Virus record (IMG/VR): IMGVR_UViG_3300017783_000006
Span: 1-64,000 of that record
DNA: 64,000 nt
Reading direction: 5' to 3' (one strand)
From: a virus
Made by a program: the position numbers and the translations under genes. Below the pieces are notes generated by a model, which saw only the letters and a program-made list of their open reading frames with translations, made no database searches and had not been told where the DNA came from. Each line of letters starts with the position of its first letter. The stretch's first letter is position 1. This document shows positions 3,009 to 14,809 of this stretch, piece by piece.

Positions 3009-4783
3009 GTAATCATAGAGTATCTAGTTCCAGATGTAACTGGCATAATTTCATGAGGATACATGAAATTTGATGGAAATATAATACCATCACCCTTCTT
3101 TAATTTGTATATTTTTGTTCTTCCCCAGAAAGTAAGTTCTCCACCTTCATAATCATCGTTTAAATTAAAAATTATAGTTAAACTTCTTGGTCTGTCTTTG
3201 AAATGATCTGTGTGTTCTATGTACTTTCCACCAACAGAATATTTTAACAATGTATATCCTTCATCTTGAGCACAAGTTAATTGCATTTCAGGATATTTGG
3301 ATTCATAACGTTGATATATTTCTTTTACTTTTTGAAAAAACATGTCATCATATTCCTTTCTCTTTTCTTGATTTTTAGACATCACATCATCATATGAAAT
3401 ATCTATCGAGGAACAATTTCTAACGTCTATGTCAGGTTCTCCTGAAGAAATTTTAGATTGCTGCCATTCATCGAACCTATTATATTCTTCAATAACTTTA
3501 TCGCAAATTGAAGTATCAAGAAAATTATCAACATGATATATCATGTCACTATAATCTATTTTTTTCTTAGTTCTATCAAAATACCTATCCGCATACTCTC
3601 CATTTTTTCTTACATAATGAAGAAATATTTGTGTATAAGATTCTCCTTCATATGGTTCCCTCCAATGAGGTCTTTCAGTTCCTAAGTAAATAATTGCATC
3701 TCCAGATTCTAAAACTACTGATTTAGTTTCCTTATTTGGTGTTTCTACAAAAAATTCCCAAGGTTCATCACCTTCCAAATGAACTGTCAATGATATTTCA
3801 CATTCAGATCTATCTACATGCTTTGTTAATACAGATTGATTACAATAATTTCTTGAGTAGCAATAAGTTGGAAGTACATCCTCCTCGATAATTTTAGAAA
3901 CCTCTTCGTTTTTATTAACAAGTAATTCTACACCAACAATAGGATTGTACATAGCAGGAGCATTTGATACCTGAGTATCTTTAATACAATCCCCCAAACT
4001 TATTTGTTTTTTTAACTTATTACTGATAGATACTGCATCATCAATTTCAATAAAATTACGGATAACAGCATATCCATTTTCTAACAATTCATTATTCATT
4101 GTAAATCTTTTTTCTAAGAAATAATTTGTTTTAATAGTGTCTATTCCATCAGGAATATCAGTTTGAAGTATATCCCTATCCCATGAACTTAAAAATCTAT
4201 TTTCCTTATTATATCCGCAAACATTAAACTTATGCAAGTGGTTTGTTATATATTCATCTACTGGAATAATACTGTTCTTATCACCAATCAATTCTCTTGC
4301 TGCTAATGGTGTAATTAAGTAACCATGAGTGCAATATGGATATACTGGAAGTGATAGATAATCATTTATTTTTACCACATTAAATTGCTCCCTCCAGTCA
4401 AAATATATCAAGTCATAATCATTAATAAGATTATCAAGTTGATTGAATGGTATTTTATGTTTAAGTATTGCATCATCTTCAAGAATTATTATTGGTTTGT
4501 CTTCATCTAAGCATTTTTTCCAAAGATAATAATGTGATAAAAAGCAACCAACTTCACCTTTCAAAATAGGTGTTTTGAATTCAGGATCTCTCCAATTTTT
4601 ATCAATATCAAATCCTCTTTCCAAAATCCAATCATAATCTATTTCGTATCCATTTATTGCATCAAAGAAATTATATTCAATAAATTTACTATTAGTTTCT
4701 TCAAATAATTTTTTCCTATCTTGTCTACTTTTTAATGATATTACAAAAATATTTTTACTCAGGAATATGTCTTTCATCTTCAC
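2996..4783 (-). CDS. GT25 glycosyltransferase fused to two 2OG-Fe(II) oxygenase domains
   Basis: N-terminal VISLKSRQDR...GEVGCFLSH...IILEDDA (GT25); then HVDRSECEIS...HWRE and HTD...YEGGEL...FPSNFMYPH...GTRYS (two 2OG domains). Start may be the ATG at 4777. Confidence 0.85.
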   Translation of the reverse strand: MKMKDIFLSKNIFVISLKSRQDRKKLFEETNSKFIEYNFFDAINGYEIDYDWILERGFDIDKNWRDPEFKTPILKGEVGCFLSHYYLWKKCLDEDKPIIILEDDAILKHKIPFNQLDNLINDYDLIYFDWREQFNVVKINDYLSLPVYPYCTHGYLITPLAARELIGDKNSIIPVDEYITNHLHKFNVCGYNKENRFLSSWDRDILQTDIPDGIDTIKTNYFLEKRFTMNNELLENGYAVIRNFIEIDDAVSISNKLKKQISLGDCIKDTQVSNAPAMYNPIVGVELLVNKNEEVSKIIEEDVLPTYCYSRNYCNQSVLTKHVDRSECEISLTVHLEGDEPWEFFVETPNKETKSVVLESGDAIIYLGTERPHWREPYEGESYTQIFLHYVRKNGEYADRYFDRTKKKIDYSDMIYHVDNFLDTSICDKVIEEYNRFDEWQQSKISSGEPDIDVRNCSSIDISYDDVMSKNQEKRKEYDDMFFQKVKEIYQRYESKYPEMQLTCAQDEGYTLLKYSVGGKYIEHTDHFKDRPRSLTIIFNLNDDYEGGELTFWGRTKIYKLKKGDGIIFPSNFMYPHEIMPVTSGTRYSMITWMI

Positions 4784-5387
4784 TAATAGATATTTGTTTT
4801 TCTTGTTTCCATATCCATCCCGTGCATATGTATTTGACTTCTCTTTTAGGTGGATACCCTCTATGTTGATATGTCCAAGTTGCTGGGAATAACATCAACT
4901 TCCCGCACTCTGGTTGAACCCTTGTACCTCCAACAAACTCTGTATATCCATTTTCTTTAACATCATTCAAATACCACAGAAAAGTTACTATTCTATTTGT
5001 TGTTGTTGTCTCATCTACATTCCCAGAACAAAAATCATGATGCCATGTATAAAATTCATATGGTTTTGTTTCTTGAAGTTGGTATCCAGTATCATATACT
5101 CCATCACTACAGAGAGCACTACCCATACCTGGCAGTATACAATTTAAATATTCTGAATACCTTTTTATTGCTCCAAATAATACTTCACTTAATATTTTAT
5201 CTTCCTCTCCCCAATTATTAGCATCTGAAAGTGACATGTCTATGGATAACTTAGTATCTGGAGTATATCCCCCACCAGTTATTCCTTTTCTTCTATGTTC
5301 AGAAGTTTTAAATTTATCAATTACATGATTACAAAACTCTCTCGTAAGAGAGTTTTGTTCAAAATAAATTAACTCATCAATGTCCAT
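4755..5387 (-). CDS. 2OG-Fe(II) oxygenase, prolyl-4-hydroxylase-like
   Basis: WHHD...LWYLNDV..GYTEF...FPATWTYQHRG...KYICTGW. Confidence 0.9.
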   Translation of the reverse strand: MDIDELIYFEQNSLTREFCNHVIDKFKTSEHRRKGITGGGYTPDTKLSIDMSLSDANNWGEEDKILSEVLFGAIKRYSEYLNCILPGMGSALCSDGVYDTGYQLQETKPYEFYTWHHDFCSGNVDETTTTNRIVTFLWYLNDVKENGYTEFVGGTRVQPECGKLMLFPATWTYQHRGYPPKREVKYICTGWIWKQEKQISISEDERHIPE

Positions 5388-6795: not shown

Positions 6796-6837
6796 AAATT
6801 TATAAACTATATATTAACTTCGATTATTTATGAAAAT

Positions 6838-7100
6838 AGAGGGCATTACACCCCCCAAGGGTTATTGGATTAGAAGGATAACCTATCCCCCATCTCCCAT
6901 TTAGGCAGTCGCAAGTGTGCGAGTGCGGGAGAATGCAACGATATTATTCGCTGCGGAATCAGATGTGTTTGCATCTATGGTTTTGTTCCGTCAACAATTA
7001 CAACCTTTTTGCCCTGTCGAAACCATGGCACCCCCATGAATGGAGGTGAGGAGAATCGAACTCCTGTCCAGAACAACAGACTTTGCAACCTCTTGAACAC
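6838..7100 (-). ncRNA. ssrA: circularly permuted two-piece tmRNA
   Basis: T-arm and 3' acceptor GGACAGGAGTTCGATTCTCCTCACCTCCA, spacer TTCAT, then 5' end GGGGGTGCCATGGTTTCGAC; G3-U70 pair; tag frame 6972-6901 reads ANTSDSAANNIVAFSRTRTLATA*. Confidence 0.93.
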
Positions 7101-7108
7101 TGTATATA

Positions 7109-7705
7109 TTAGCATATTTTTTCCTCAAGGCAAGTCCAAATTATTTTCTTCGTACCAGATGTTACTTTTGTCCCTTTATGTATTGTTCTCATATCACAGG
7201 GAAATACCAAAACACTTCCCTTTTTGGGTTTAACTTTTACTTTATCATTCAAAAATAGTGTTGCACCACCATCAAAATCATCATTTAAATATATGATTAT
7301 AGAAAGTACGAAATTTCCATTTTTTGATGAGTCTATATGCCAATTATAATAATCATTTTCATCATAAAATCTATAGATTAATTTCATATTATAATCTTTA
7401 GATTTACTAGAAAACATATTTGAATACTTATTTACTAATATATTATCATCATAATAGTTGGTTATAGATTTGGAAATTAATGCACTTGCTTCCATATCTA
7501 CTATTTTTACAAATTTATATTCATTAGATAACTCTGTTATATTAAATGCAATATTATTTCTAACTTTATTTTTACCACTAGACTTGTTATTAGAAATAAT
7601 ACTATTTTTTTCCTTCTCAATCAGTTCTATGAATTGATCGCAGATTTCATCATCAACAAAATTTTCATATTCGTAAATGAAATTATTATGTTTAATTAAT
7701 TTCAT
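7109..7705 (-). CDS. 2OG-Fe(II) oxygenase, prolyl-4-hydroxylase-like
   Basis: WHID...IYLNDDFDGGATLF...HKG...GTK; start revised to MKLIKH because the track start lies inside tRNA-Ala. Confidence 0.88.
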   Translation of the reverse strand: MKLIKHNNFIYEYENFVDDEICDQFIELIEKEKNSIISNNKSSGKNKVRNNIAFNITELSNEYKFVKIVDMEASALISKSITNYYDDNILVNKYSNMFSSKSKDYNMKLIYRFYDENDYYNWHIDSSKNGNFVLSIIIYLNDDFDGGATLFLNDKVKVKPKKGSVLVFPCDMRTIHKGTKVTSGTKKIIWTCLEEKIC

Positions 7706-7720
7706 GTGTTTAGAGCAAAA

Positions 7721-7793
7721 TGGAGAATAGGAGACTCGAACTCCTGACTTCAACCTTGCAAAGGTTGCACTCTACCAACTGAGTTAATTCCCC
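7721..7793 (-). tRNA. tRNA-Ala (TGC)
   Basis: GGGGAAT...ATTCTCCA; anticodon arm CAACC-TTTGCAA-GGTTG; G3-U70. Confidence 0.95.
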
Positions 7794-8320: not shown

Positions 8321-8932
8321 TTAATACTTTGTTCCAATATTAAATTGGCAAGTAATTTTTTTCCCCGATTCAGGTAGAACAAAGTGTTCTAAATGACATG
8401 GAAATATTACCACAGAACCTTCACCAATACTTTTTTCTTCTCTTGTATCGTATAACTGTTGACCAAATACTGGACCACATGTTAAAGGACTTCTTTTCCT
8501 GAAAACTGTAGTATTTTCTTGACCATCAGTATCAACTATGTATACAAAAGAAAAGGATGGTGTATATCCATCACGACCATCTGCAAGATGATCATGTAAT
8601 CCAATGTAATCACCTTTATCATATCTATTATACCAACAATTAAGTATAATAGATGACTCTGGATTTAACCAGGGAAACTCAAATTTTTCTTTCAATTCAC
8701 TAAGCATTTGCTCTAGTGGTTTCCAGACAACATTGTTTAAAATTTCTTTATCAAATAAAAAACTATTGTATTCATTTCCATTATAGTAACTTTGAAATAC
8801 ATGGTCAATAGAGACACATCCCTTCTCATTGTCTACTCTGGACTGAATTTCATTTAATATTTTATTCTTTATATTATTATGATTTTTTACTTTGTTGGAA
8901 TAAACAAAATCAATAGGAAAAAAATAAAACAT
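8321..8932 (-). CDS. putative 2OG-Fe(II) oxygenase (TIGR02466-like)
   Basis: WYNRY..GD...HDH...SFVY...IFP..LEHFVLP. Confidence 0.8.
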   Translation of the reverse strand: MFYFFPIDFVYSNKVKNHNNIKNKILNEIQSRVDNEKGCVSIDHVFQSYYNGNEYNSFLFDKEILNNVVWKPLEQMLSELKEKFEFPWLNPESSIILNCWYNRYDKGDYIGLHDHLADGRDGYTPSFSFVYIVDTDGQENTTVFRKRSPLTCGPVFGQQLYDTREEKSIGEGSVVIFPCHLEHFVLPESGKKITCQFNIGTKY

Positions 8933-9442: not shown

Positions 9443-9446
9443 AGCA

Positions 9447-9528
9447 TGGGTAGAGTTGGATTTGAACCAACGTAAGCATAGCTAACGGATTTACAGTCCG
9501 TCTCCTTTAACCACTCGGACACCTACCC
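9447..9528 (-). tRNA. tRNA-Tyr (GTA)
   Basis: Anticodon arm ACGGA-CTGTAAA-TCCGT. Confidence 0.95.
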
Positions 9529-9543
9529 ATATCCGATTCATTT

Positions 9544-9572
9544 ATCATACCAAAAAACATCTATCGTGTCAA
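9544..9572 (-). promoter_or_regulatory. sigma70-like promoter of the tRNA cluster
   Basis: TTGACA-N17-TATGAT. Confidence 0.7.
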
Positions 9573-10267
9573 GAAAATGGTGTAGAAATCCATGTTGATG
9601 GGTCTGTGCAAACATTCTCAACGTTACCAATTTCAGATTTTGCAGTTATCATAATATCAGCACTAACCGAATACCTCATAGAATCTCCTTCGTATTTTAA
9701 AACTTCATGTTCTATTGAAGAAGGAAAAATTATTATACTGTTACTACCCAAGTTATAATCAATATGATTGCGACTAAGTGACGTTTCACTAAACATACCA
9801 TGTCCACGAATAGGGAGTCTTCTCAAAAAATCGTCTCCTCTATGAAATCTTAACTTCCCAGTTTCACTATCTGTTTCTTTTTGAATGTAATAAACAGCAC
9901 TTAAATGTGAACCAATGTGGTTATGTGGTTTTATATACGAACCCTTTTCACAACAAACTGGCCAAGATTTTATAATATTTAAATCTACTTTTTCAGTATC
10001 AACTCCAAGTTCCCTTAAGTAACTAACAGTATGAAAACCAATAGCATGTGCTAAGTAATAAAAATCACCTGATGTTTTACAAACATTAGGTGCGGTTCCA
10101 TGTGTATCACCCGTTAAAGCACCATTACTTGTCTTTAGATGCTTATTAGTTTCATAATATTTTTCACAATATTTAAGCATTCTATCCTGAAAAACAGGAA
10201 AATAATCTATTTCTGATTCATAAATTGGCAATCCAAACCAACTGTAAATTTCTGCCTCTTTTACCAT
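9569..10267 (-). CDS. putative 2OG-Fe(II) oxygenase (TIGR02466-like)
   Basis: SW...PHNH.GSHLSAVYY...IIFPS..EHEV...RYS. Confidence 0.85.
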   Translation of the reverse strand: MVKEAEIYSWFGLPIYESEIDYFPVFQDRMLKYCEKYYETNKHLKTSNGALTGDTHGTAPNVCKTSGDFYYLAHAIGFHTVSYLRELGVDTEKVDLNIIKSWPVCCEKGSYIKPHNHIGSHLSAVYYIQKETDSETGKLRFHRGDDFLRRLPIRGHGMFSETSLSRNHIDYNLGSNSIIIFPSSIEHEVLKYEGDSMRYSVSADIMITAKSEIGNVENVCTDPSTWISTPFS

Positions 10268-13336: not shown

Positions 13337-14809
13337 TTATTTACTTTTCTTCTTAACACAGTTTGGATACCTTTTCCCAAACATAGTTTTCATACCTTTT
13401 TTCGTATAACCTGGCCAACACTTTTCACCAAGCATGTCACTACCAATACCTTTTGATGGTGTTAGAGGTTCTGCTTTGATAATATCAAAACTTTCAACTT
13501 CCAATGCAGAGAAATCATCTCTCCAATTAGAATGATTGTAATTTTCATCTACATTAGTCTCTTGCTTTTTCTTAGCAATCATCTTTCTATACTTTTCCAA
13601 TGCATCTTTACTATCAGGTGCATCCATATCTTTAGCACTAGCACCATATTTTTTAGATGGGGAATTATCAGAACCGGAATTATTAGTAATCTTATTAAGA
13701 GCATTAGATGCTACATTACCAAGAACATTTCTCTTTACTCCAGTTATTTTTTTTGCTTTATTTGCATTTTTGCCAGTTCTTGCTGCCTTAGATACTGAAT
13801 TTACTCTTCCTGCATTTCTTGCTGCTCTTGCTCCCTTTGCTACTTTTGCTCCTTTGCCAAATATACCAACACCAGGAATAGCACCAAGAGCATCTAAAGC
13901 AGCAGCACCATAATTTCCTTTTTGCAAATTCTTTCCCGCACTATAAGCAGAATATCCTGCCAATCCCGCACCAATACCTTTTAATGCCAAACCACCAAGA
14001 GCAAGTGGTGCAATTTCTTGAAGATTGCTTTCACCCAGTCCTCCACCATCACCACCGTCACCATCTCCCATATCGTTAACTTCGATATCATCATCATCTT
14101 CCCTTGAAAGATACCCACCACGTCCTACTGAATACCCTTTTGGAATCTTTTTGCACTTTTCATCATCAAAACACCAGTACTTCCCATCAGGGCAAGATTT
14201 TGCTTCACTACCCTCAGTTAACTTTTTTTTTTCTCTCATCTTCTTTGCTTTTGCAAGAAGTCGTGCTTTTGCTGAATCCTGCTCATCTTTAGGAACATTA
14301 AACATATCCCTATCAGTCTTCAGTTTCTCATCGGGTTTATCATAACCCTCATACATTCTTCTAGATCCTCCACCATAATAAGACCTATTCGTTTTATCTG
14401 CTGCATCTCTTTTAGCCTTAACTTTCTGTGCAGGAGTTGGTGCATCATTCCATGCTCTTTCCTTCTTCTCACCTTTTACTTTTTTCTTTCCTCTTGCGAG
14501 ACCTTCTTCTCTTGCACCAGATCCACCACCACCATGAAGATGTCTATGGGTTCCAGGAATCCTCTCAGTACCACGGGAATATGGATTGGTAGGATTATCC
14601 ATAGCCTGTTTCATTCTCCCCATTGCTGCTTTCATGGAGAGTGCTTTCTTCTCAGACTTCTTTACTTTCCACTTTCCTTCATCATCTTTAGTAATATGCT
14701 TTTTACTTAAAGTTTGATAAAGAGGTGTCCTTTTCTCACCTTTTACCTTATCTTCCTTACGCATCTCTGAGAGATATGACTTATCCAAAAATTGATTAAA
14801 AGTCTTCAT
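13337..14809 (-). CDS. mosaic basic protein, putative internal head protein
   Basis: KTFNQF..LSE N-terminus; LTE/LQE sites; CPDGKYWC and CWPGY..NCVK modules; a PT-TG-like segment. Confidence 0.65.
   Translation of the reverse strand: MKTFNQFLDKSYLSEMRKEDKVKGEKRTPLYQTLSKKHITKDDEGKWKVKKSEKKALSMKAAMGRMKQAMDNPTNPYSRGTERIPGTHRHLHGGGGSGAREEGLARGKKKVKGEKKERAWNDAPTPAQKVKAKRDAADKTNRSYYGGGSRRMYEGYDKPDEKLKTDRDMFNVPKDEQDSAKARLLAKAKKMREKKKLTEGSEAKSCPDGKYWCFDDEKCKKIPKGYSVGRGGYLSREDDDDIEVNDMGDGDGGDGGGLGESNLQEIAPLALGGLALKGIGAGLAGYSAYSAGKNLQKGNYGAAALDALGAIPGVGIFGKGAKVAKGARAARNAGRVNSVSKAARTGKNANKAKKITGVKRNVLGNVASNALNKITNNSGSDNSPSKKYGASAKDMDAPDSKDALEKYRKMIAKKKQETNVDENYNHSNWRDDFSALEVESFDIIKAEPLTPSKGIGSDMLGEKCWPGYTKKGMKTMFGKRYPNCVKKKSK

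Follow-up and report, generated by a model that had tools for sequence, protein, structure and literature searches.

Among conserved degrons, tmRNA tags are a standard case, and a few upstream bases are considered to fix the resume codon. The canonical ssrA degron is a C-terminal Ala-Ala-COO- (C-motif 1 of ClpX), of which weaker versions (ASV, AAV and DAS) have been engineered. In Escherichia coli, U85 and A86 set the tmRNA frame (PMC2481249). An earlier census knew phage tmRNA only from mycobacteriophage and Bacillus phage G (PMC4131195), and a 2022 survey lists S-CAM1, S-CAM3, S-SSM7 and S-CRM01 as permuted-tmRNA phages in its Table S1, with their tags undiscussed (PMC9004378). The gene class considered here is already catalogued; what the present sequence comparison adds is an analysis of the resume site, two hairpins over the tag start, a mosaic of tag-end cassettes and a comparison of ClpX. 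The exact tag strings gave no match in the searchable literature, and we found no paper that describes this tag design.

The tmRNA gene that we analyzed lies in a 64,000-nucleotide stretch of DNA (the window) from a T4-like cyanomyovirus (a 78.8-kb IMG/VR virus record, about 40% complete). With the two-piece tmRNA of picocyanobacteria from marine and fresh waters (Synechococcus, Prochlorococcus and Cyanobium; Rfam RF01851) it shares the permuted order, short spacer, G3:U70 pair, T loop and helix 2, as well as the hairpin of the PK1 region, U/C-A at positions -5/-4, the ANNIV.FSR core and, ahead of the stop, a helix 5. The picocyanobacterial genes form a separate clade and encode different tags: of the 112 species among the matches listed, 110 have a tag of 16 codons and 105 one that ends in PVAA, and none carries the insertion described below. 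The tmRNAs of S-CAM1 and S-CAM3 have the extension, core and acceptor piece in common with the window, but their tags are of 21 codons and end in ..STVAA, whereas that of the window ends in TRTLATA and its 3' domain is nearer to that of another phage contig (L080). Compared with the resume determinants of E. coli (PMC2481249), the first candidate site of the window likewise has pyrimidine-A at -5/-4 followed by GCN AAN; unlike in E. coli, a conserved hairpin of 5 bp can take up the A at -4 together with the initial base of the resume codon, and 21 nt further on the tag start recurs in a second copy that lacks the context. The tag resembles the canonical ssrA degron in having a non-polar C terminus on an unstructured tail, but its penultimate residue is Thr instead of Ala.

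Our best explanation is that the locus encodes a functional two-piece phage tmRNA, which would depend on the SmpB, alanyl-tRNA synthetase and proteases of the host. Resumption would most likely take place on the first GCA (6972-6970), and a rescued polypeptide would gain the charged alanine plus 23 encoded residues, comprising a seven-residue polar spacer (ANTSDSA), the core ANNIVAFSR and a phage-type cassette (TRTLATA). The spacer would go back to 21 nt inserted in frame after the resume codon, perhaps by tandem duplication of the start of the tag, and the Thr-Ala end would remain a non-polar degron that binds host ClpXP more weakly, leading to slower degradation or to another protease. To this joint explanation (functional tmRNA, resumption on the first GCA, 23-residue tag, weaker Thr-Ala degron) we give somewhat better than an even chance.

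Architecture of the gene and its tag frame

The Rfam model RF01851 (cyanobacterial tmRNA; gathering cut-off 70 bits) matches the minus strand of the window end-to-end with 123.3 bits (E 6e-33; model positions 1-288 at 7115-6839), the general permuted-tmRNA model RF04321 reaches 85.5 bits (cut-off 47 bits), and ARAGORN reports a permuted tmRNA ('tmRNA*') at 6810-7130 on the same strand; the gene sits within an array of eleven tRNA genes. The permuted order is confirmed by the succession of the T arm and 3' acceptor strand (7065-7041), the 5' acceptor strand and the tag frame (Table 1). The 7-bp acceptor stem is present with its discriminator A and G3:U70, the identity pair of alanine acceptors; the T loop is preserved, and CCA is absent from the encoded acceptor piece.

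Table 1. Features of the tmRNA gene, in window coordinates
Feature	Position	Strand	Remarks
Whole two-piece (circularly permuted) tmRNA gene	6839..7115	-	Rfam RF01851, ARAGORN
Acceptor piece	7041..7093	-	Helix-2 5' strand, T arm 7065-7049; Rfam alignment and sequence
Acceptor 3' strand CACCUCC plus discriminator A	7048-7041	-	Discriminator is A7041
Intervening segment UUCAU, 5-nt spacer	7036..7040	-	Probably removed on maturation, judging from the sequence
5' acceptor strand GGGGGUG, coding piece	7029..7035	-	G7033 pairs with U7044 (G3:U70)
Hairpin UUGUU-GACGG-AACAA, PK1 region	6983..6997	-	10 nt upstream of first Ala codon
Frame-setting context UAGAU (-5 to -1)	6973..6977	-	A6976 is -4
Tag frame, 23 codons plus TAA	6972-6901	-	ANTSDSA + ANNIVAFSR + TRTLATA
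First Ala codon GCA, favored resume codon	6970..6972	-	Preceded by AUAGAU
Seven-codon extension ANTSDSA	6952..6972	-	21 nt in all 73 extended copies listed
Hairpin 1, AGAUG/CAUCU	6961..6976	-	6976-6972 with 6965-6961; spans -4 to codon 4
Second Ala codon GCG, alternative resume point	6949..6951	-	Seven codons past GCA, same frame
Hairpin 2, GCAGCGA/UCGUUGC	6935..6954	-	6954-6948 with 6941-6935; over second Ala codon
Host-like core ANNIVAFSR	6925..6951	-	Variation nearly all at third codon positions (40 unique phage sequences)
C-terminal cassette TRTLATA plus stop	6901..6924	-	TAA 6903-6901; helix-5 hairpin 6922-6918/6913-6909 (RNAfold)
Outer helix UCUCCCG/UGGGAGA	6893..6932	-	6932-6926 with 6899-6893; encloses cassette and stop
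3' terminal hairpin then U run, terminator-like	6837..6857	-	Terminator scan; last helix of Rfam model

The tag frame begins with an Ala codon that has A at -4, and its stop codon stands behind the 5-bp hairpin of helix 5. A preliminary description of this DNA had placed a canonical-looking context ahead of a 23-codon frame, and the tag returned by ARAGORN (23 codons plus stop) is identical to it. The description was also right that a host-like ANNIV.FSR core begins seven codons downstream in the same frame, with the GCG codon opening ANNIVAFSR, and that the frame ends in ..LATA instead of (V/L)AA. The resume codons that ARAGORN assigns in this tmRNA family call for caution, since it sometimes prefixes 'VT' to host tags, starting two codons early.

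A near-identical form of the PK1-region hairpin (UGUU-GACGG-(A/G)ACA) stands at the same distance from the resume codon in the unextended phage tmRNAs L098, L016 and L030. Genes for SmpB and ClpP, which might have accounted for a private tag, were found neither in the phage record (about 40% complete) nor in four complete relatives, and host factors must therefore act. On these structural features, the tmRNA gene looks intact and working.

Matches to sigma-70 promoters around the gene were no more numerous than in shuffled sequence. A pseudoknot of the loop CGGAA (6990-6986) with UUCCG in the extension, which would make the extension part of PK1, was rejected because UUCCG is limited to the window and S-CAM3-like copies, unrelated bases standing there in other lineages.

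Extension and tag ends across phages and hosts

Two pattern scans of IMG/VR yielded at least 84 phage contigs with this tmRNA type (contigs may include host DNA), and a scan for the core-codon pattern, with one genome per species, yielded at least 112 cyanobacterial species. The seven-codon extension is present in 73 of the 84 phage copies among the matches listed (46 unique sequences; 11 copies are without it), always in frame and always of exactly 21 nt, and in 0 of the 112 host species among the matches listed. Among cultured relatives (ARAGORN), the tags consist of the seven-codon front, ANNIVAFSR and a variable end, the sole exception being the freshwater phage S-CRM01, which is without the front part. 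The window tmRNA is 91-92% identical to those of the Synechococcus phages S-CAM1 and S-CAM3, with more distant relatives in Sf-FS3, S-SSM7, AG-345-P14 and S-CRM01. By this distribution the extension appears as a lineage feature of most marine cyanomyovirus tmRNAs among the matches listed.

A phylogenetic tree was built from the coding piece without the tag (a first tree on the region upstream of the coding piece was discarded because nested tRNA-Tyr spacers, in L080 and L099, meant that non-homologous DNA was being compared). Host tmRNAs form a clade separate from all phage copies (support 97/98), and the window gene is of phage-lineage and not host-lineage ssrA, being on a T4-like contig, outside the host clade and with a tag unlike those of the 112 hosts listed. 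A host tmRNA with the same tag, which would speak against the view that the tag is N-terminally extended and altered at its end, was looked for and found in none of the 112 host species listed; alignment with hosts and phages upholds that view, with both traits absent from these hosts.

Some phage copies read ANNIDTA before ANNIV, which is suggestive of, though only suggestive of, an origin of the extension by a 21-nt tandem duplication of the tag start; the ANNIDTA-type copies are confined to one sub-clade and could be secondary. The tag start is apparently duplicated in form, with two in-frame Ala sites, each in a compensatory hairpin and only one with canonical context, and a tmRNA family of this kind, natural and widespread, would be a ready-made test of frame-selection rules.

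The tag peptide itself bears signs of selection. Over codons 8-16 (ANNIVAFSR), 40 phage sequences differ from one another nearly exclusively at third positions (slight variation is seen in two columns of first or second position), indicating that the core peptide is under selection in phages. Within the extension, codons 3-6 show variation at each of their three positions while the residues remain small and polar, and the extension would accordingly be described as a loosely constrained spacer. Frame 0 is open in all 40 unique phage sequences, and frame +2 is interrupted by a stop in 29 of the 40; downstream differences in tag length are all multiples of three.

The longest tags were seen in the S-SSM7 type (31 codons; L005:1444-1795 and S-SSM7-like contigs), where an in-frame perfect hairpin pairs the FSR codons with an inserted complement that is read as ..TRE, a second F-A/S-R following the hairpin; here an inserted RNA helix is translated as extra tag residues.

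The ends of the tags are far more varied in phages than in hosts. Among the 84 phage copies listed, the last two residues are TA in 32, AA in 27, TV in 9, LV in 6, AV in 5 and others in 5, whereas AA ends the tag in 108 of the 112 host species among the matches listed. Both ..TVAA and ..LATA cassettes occur side by side in near-identical phage tmRNA backgrounds. The window falls in a clade of eight (support 100/100) made up of six copies ending in ..STVAA and two in ..TRTLATA, and another supported pair in the tag-less coding-piece tree also mixes the two ends. Relative to the S-CAM3 isolate KU686198, the window is identical in the acceptor piece and in the 5' half of the coding piece and diverges from the end of the extension onward; 3' of the extension it matches contig L080, with identical cassette codons (the stop of L080 being TGA). 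We tentatively read this cassette mosaic as recombination. A third form (L013 and L107) joins the extension to an end module with 33 nt identical to a host gene (..QAAPVAA), which suggests exchange or recombination of ssrA between phage and host.

Two alternative ends on near-identical RNAs amount to a natural experiment on whether the proteolytic half of trans-translation is needed by a virus or ribosome release alone. Marine Synechococcus and its phages are ecologically important, which lends practical interest to how stalled ribosomes are handled while host mRNA decays.

The consequences of the Thr-Ala end for proteolysis can be approached through the ClpX of the host. In the ClpX of Synechococcus WH7803 (isolation host of S-CAM1), the pore-1 (GYVG), pore-2 (ITRDV) and RKH stretches are the same as in E. 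coli ClpX, for which a chain of the ssrA recognition complex served as reference. Mutation of the penultimate or last Ala in E. coli raises KM with Vmax little changed (PMC7652416), and in Synechocystis the stability of a reporter depends in graded fashion on the last three residues of its tag, in the same order as in E. coli (PMC2860132); more generally, the last residues of engineered tag variants grade stability in both organisms (PMC7652416, PMC2860132, PMC8512704). Cyanobacterial Clp degrons are otherwise little known (PMC7966870). Because penultimate-Ala mutations raise KM and the host ClpX pore loops are identical, it is a fair inference that the Thr-Ala end would be a weaker ClpXP signal than Ala-Ala.

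The preliminary description had gone further, proposing that the phage tag decouples ribosome rescue from proteolysis, and this proposal is unsupported: the 15 distinct last-four motifs listed for phages contain only A, V, L, T, P, S, F, C and M and no charged residue, S-CAM1 and S-CAM3 end in ..VAA, and AA and TA ends are mixed within tight clades. Endings that are all non-polar point to a degron that would have been retained and not to escape from proteolysis.

The same mixture lends itself to another explanation, in which ribosome release alone is needed, the tag end drifts or recombines under relaxed selection so that TA versus AA is inconsequential, and the odd tag length is a by-product of in-frame RNA helices. 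Ends of both kinds in near-identical phages could indeed mean that the end hardly matters to the phage, the phage motifs are many where those of hosts (among the matches listed) are near-invariant, and the long S-SSM7-type tags are visibly in-frame hairpin insertions. Relaxed selection would be expected to be less choosy, however, than the restricted, uncharged residues of the last four positions suggest, and every insertion is a multiple of three and stop-free. Thr-Ala or Thr-Val also recurs in several divergent phage lineages that retain the Thr codon (always ACU, apart from one synonymous ACC). The last three codons of the tag in the window lie in paired regions (helix 5 and the outer helix), and we considered whether RNA pairing forces the Thr codon; this was rejected, since its first base pairs with U, so that G (a G-U pair, encoding Ala) would be tolerated too. 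We regard relaxed selection on the end as possible but rather unlikely.

The strands of the outer helix differ among relatives and yet remain complementary (UUGCCC/GGGCAA, UCACUC/GAGUGA, UCUCGY/GUGAGA). This helix joins the F-S-R codons (6926-6932) to bases after the stop (6893-6899); relative to the 3' hairpin of the Rfam model, it is either a competing structure or a pseudoknot partner.

A more elaborate possibility, which we consider doubtful, is a modular, recombining tag in which the duplicated front would mark rescued polypeptides and the AA and TA cassettes would set the rate of destruction or the host protease. If it were true, the phage would tune the fate of truncated host and phage proteins in infection separately from ribosome release.

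The resume codon and RNA structure over the tag start

The preliminary description named two possible resume points, and this ambiguity is reproduced by two Rfam models: RF04321 aligns the resume codon with the first GCA and RF01851 aligns the ANNIV codons with the second site, the models disagreeing because one tracks the upstream context and the other the ANNIV codons. Conservation of the frame cannot separate the sites, because both Ala codons share one frame. We measured position relative to the invariant landmark GGYUUCGAC, which in hosts is separated from the resume codon by 51-53 nt. For extended phage tmRNAs whose body is host-like, the distances are 49-51 nt (first site) and 70-72 nt (second site); for the short body type, to which the window tmRNA belongs, the first site is 42-43 nt away, as is the resume codon of unextended phage tmRNAs of the same type (42-43 nt). 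In the window itself the distances are 43 nt to GCA and 64 nt to GCG. By these distances the upstream GCA is the positional counterpart of the host resume codon.

The bases ahead of the two sites tell them apart as well. In front of the first site stand C/U at -5, A at -4 and U at -1, without exception among the 46 unique extended phage copies listed. All 84 unique host sequences listed show U at -5 together with A at -4; at the second site, -4 is C/U in all 46 unique copies listed and never A. The first two bases of codons 1 and 2 never vary (GC-N, AA-N), and most of them (C16, A18 and A19) lie in the loop of hairpin 1. Taking position, context and these invariant bases together, we infer that translation quite probably resumes at the first GCA, giving the 23-codon tag.

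The tag start is also structured as RNA. In a gap-free alignment of 40 unique phage sequences, two base pairs of hairpin 1 are changed on both sides in 10 sequences (G-C to U-A and A-U to C-G), and seven further sequences appear, by eye and uncounted, to keep a 4-bp version shifted by one base. Hairpin 2 has 100% of its cells paired in the 40 sequences, with a U-A to A-U swap in 8 and G-C to A-U in 1, all at synonymous third positions. The covariation score exceeded all 500 shuffles and all slid controls, although the relatedness of the sequences inflates such figures. The residue at codon 4 (Ser or Asp) follows the compensatory changes of hairpin 1, which indicates that RNA structure has at least some part in shaping this stretch of the extension. 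The A at -4, single-stranded in the E. coli model, is paired in hairpin 1. Both points count against our best explanation. In host tmRNAs, a 6-bp hairpin (GCGAAC/GUUCGU) starts on the resume codon and is fully paired in about 60 of 68 (host loci L127-L246); whether tag position 6 is Arg or Ser is explained by the one compensatory change in this hairpin, the GCU/AGU variant.

These hairpins bear on the alternative that translation resumes at the second Ala codon (GCG), giving a 16-codon tag of host length, with the upstream 21 nt an untranslated insertion that forms hairpin 1. An untranslated role would fit the compensatory changes in hairpin 1 that alter the encoded residue and the free variation of codons 3-6, and the fully conserved hairpin 2 over GCG would match the hairpin that begins at the host resume codon, in line with the RF01851 alignment. 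Resumption at GCG would, however, have to do without the A at -4 found at every host and first site listed (0 of 46 second sites have it), would place the resume codon 21 nt beyond the landmark distance of hosts and unextended phage tmRNAs, and would leave the invariant GC-N-AA-N of codons 1 and 2, partly in the hairpin loop, unexplained by pairing. We judge second-site resumption to be quite unlikely, and prefer the first GCA. That the RNA instead serves as a decoy, sequestering the SmpB of the host or obstructing its trans-translation, as proposed for the tRNA-like-domain-only molecule of mycobacteriophage DS6A (PMC4131195) and as might be imagined for phage records in which no SmpB was found, is most improbable given that a full coding piece, open tag frame, stop, helix 5 and codon-periodic core conservation, all needless for a decoy, have been kept.

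Neighboring reading frames and public annotation

Four open reading frames on the minus strand (7109-7753, 8321-8932, 9569-10267 and 4755-5387) interleave with the tRNA and tmRNA genes and, from motifs recognized by eye, may encode 2OG-Fe(II) oxygenases or prolyl hydroxylases. That at 7109-7753 ends with its stop codon inside the 5' leader of the tmRNA gene. In L080, a complete tRNA-Tyr gene (13582-13664) occupies the spacer between the tmRNA pieces (tmRNA at L080:13490-13894), and L099 is similar in the alignment; the tRNA-Tyr gene of the window lies at 9446-9529, away from the 5-nt tmRNA spacer.

The tmRNA is un-annotated in the following public phage records. The KU686xxx and NC_031906 records of S-CAM phages have a 'hypothetical protein' CDS over the tmRNA (detailed for KU686198), and HQ634177 has no feature there. 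Such CDSs, over or against the gene, include L001:1502-1642 (KU686198), L005:1486-1704 (GU071098) and one in L004 at about 1731, and the matching spurious open reading frame in the window is 6975-7115 on the minus strand.
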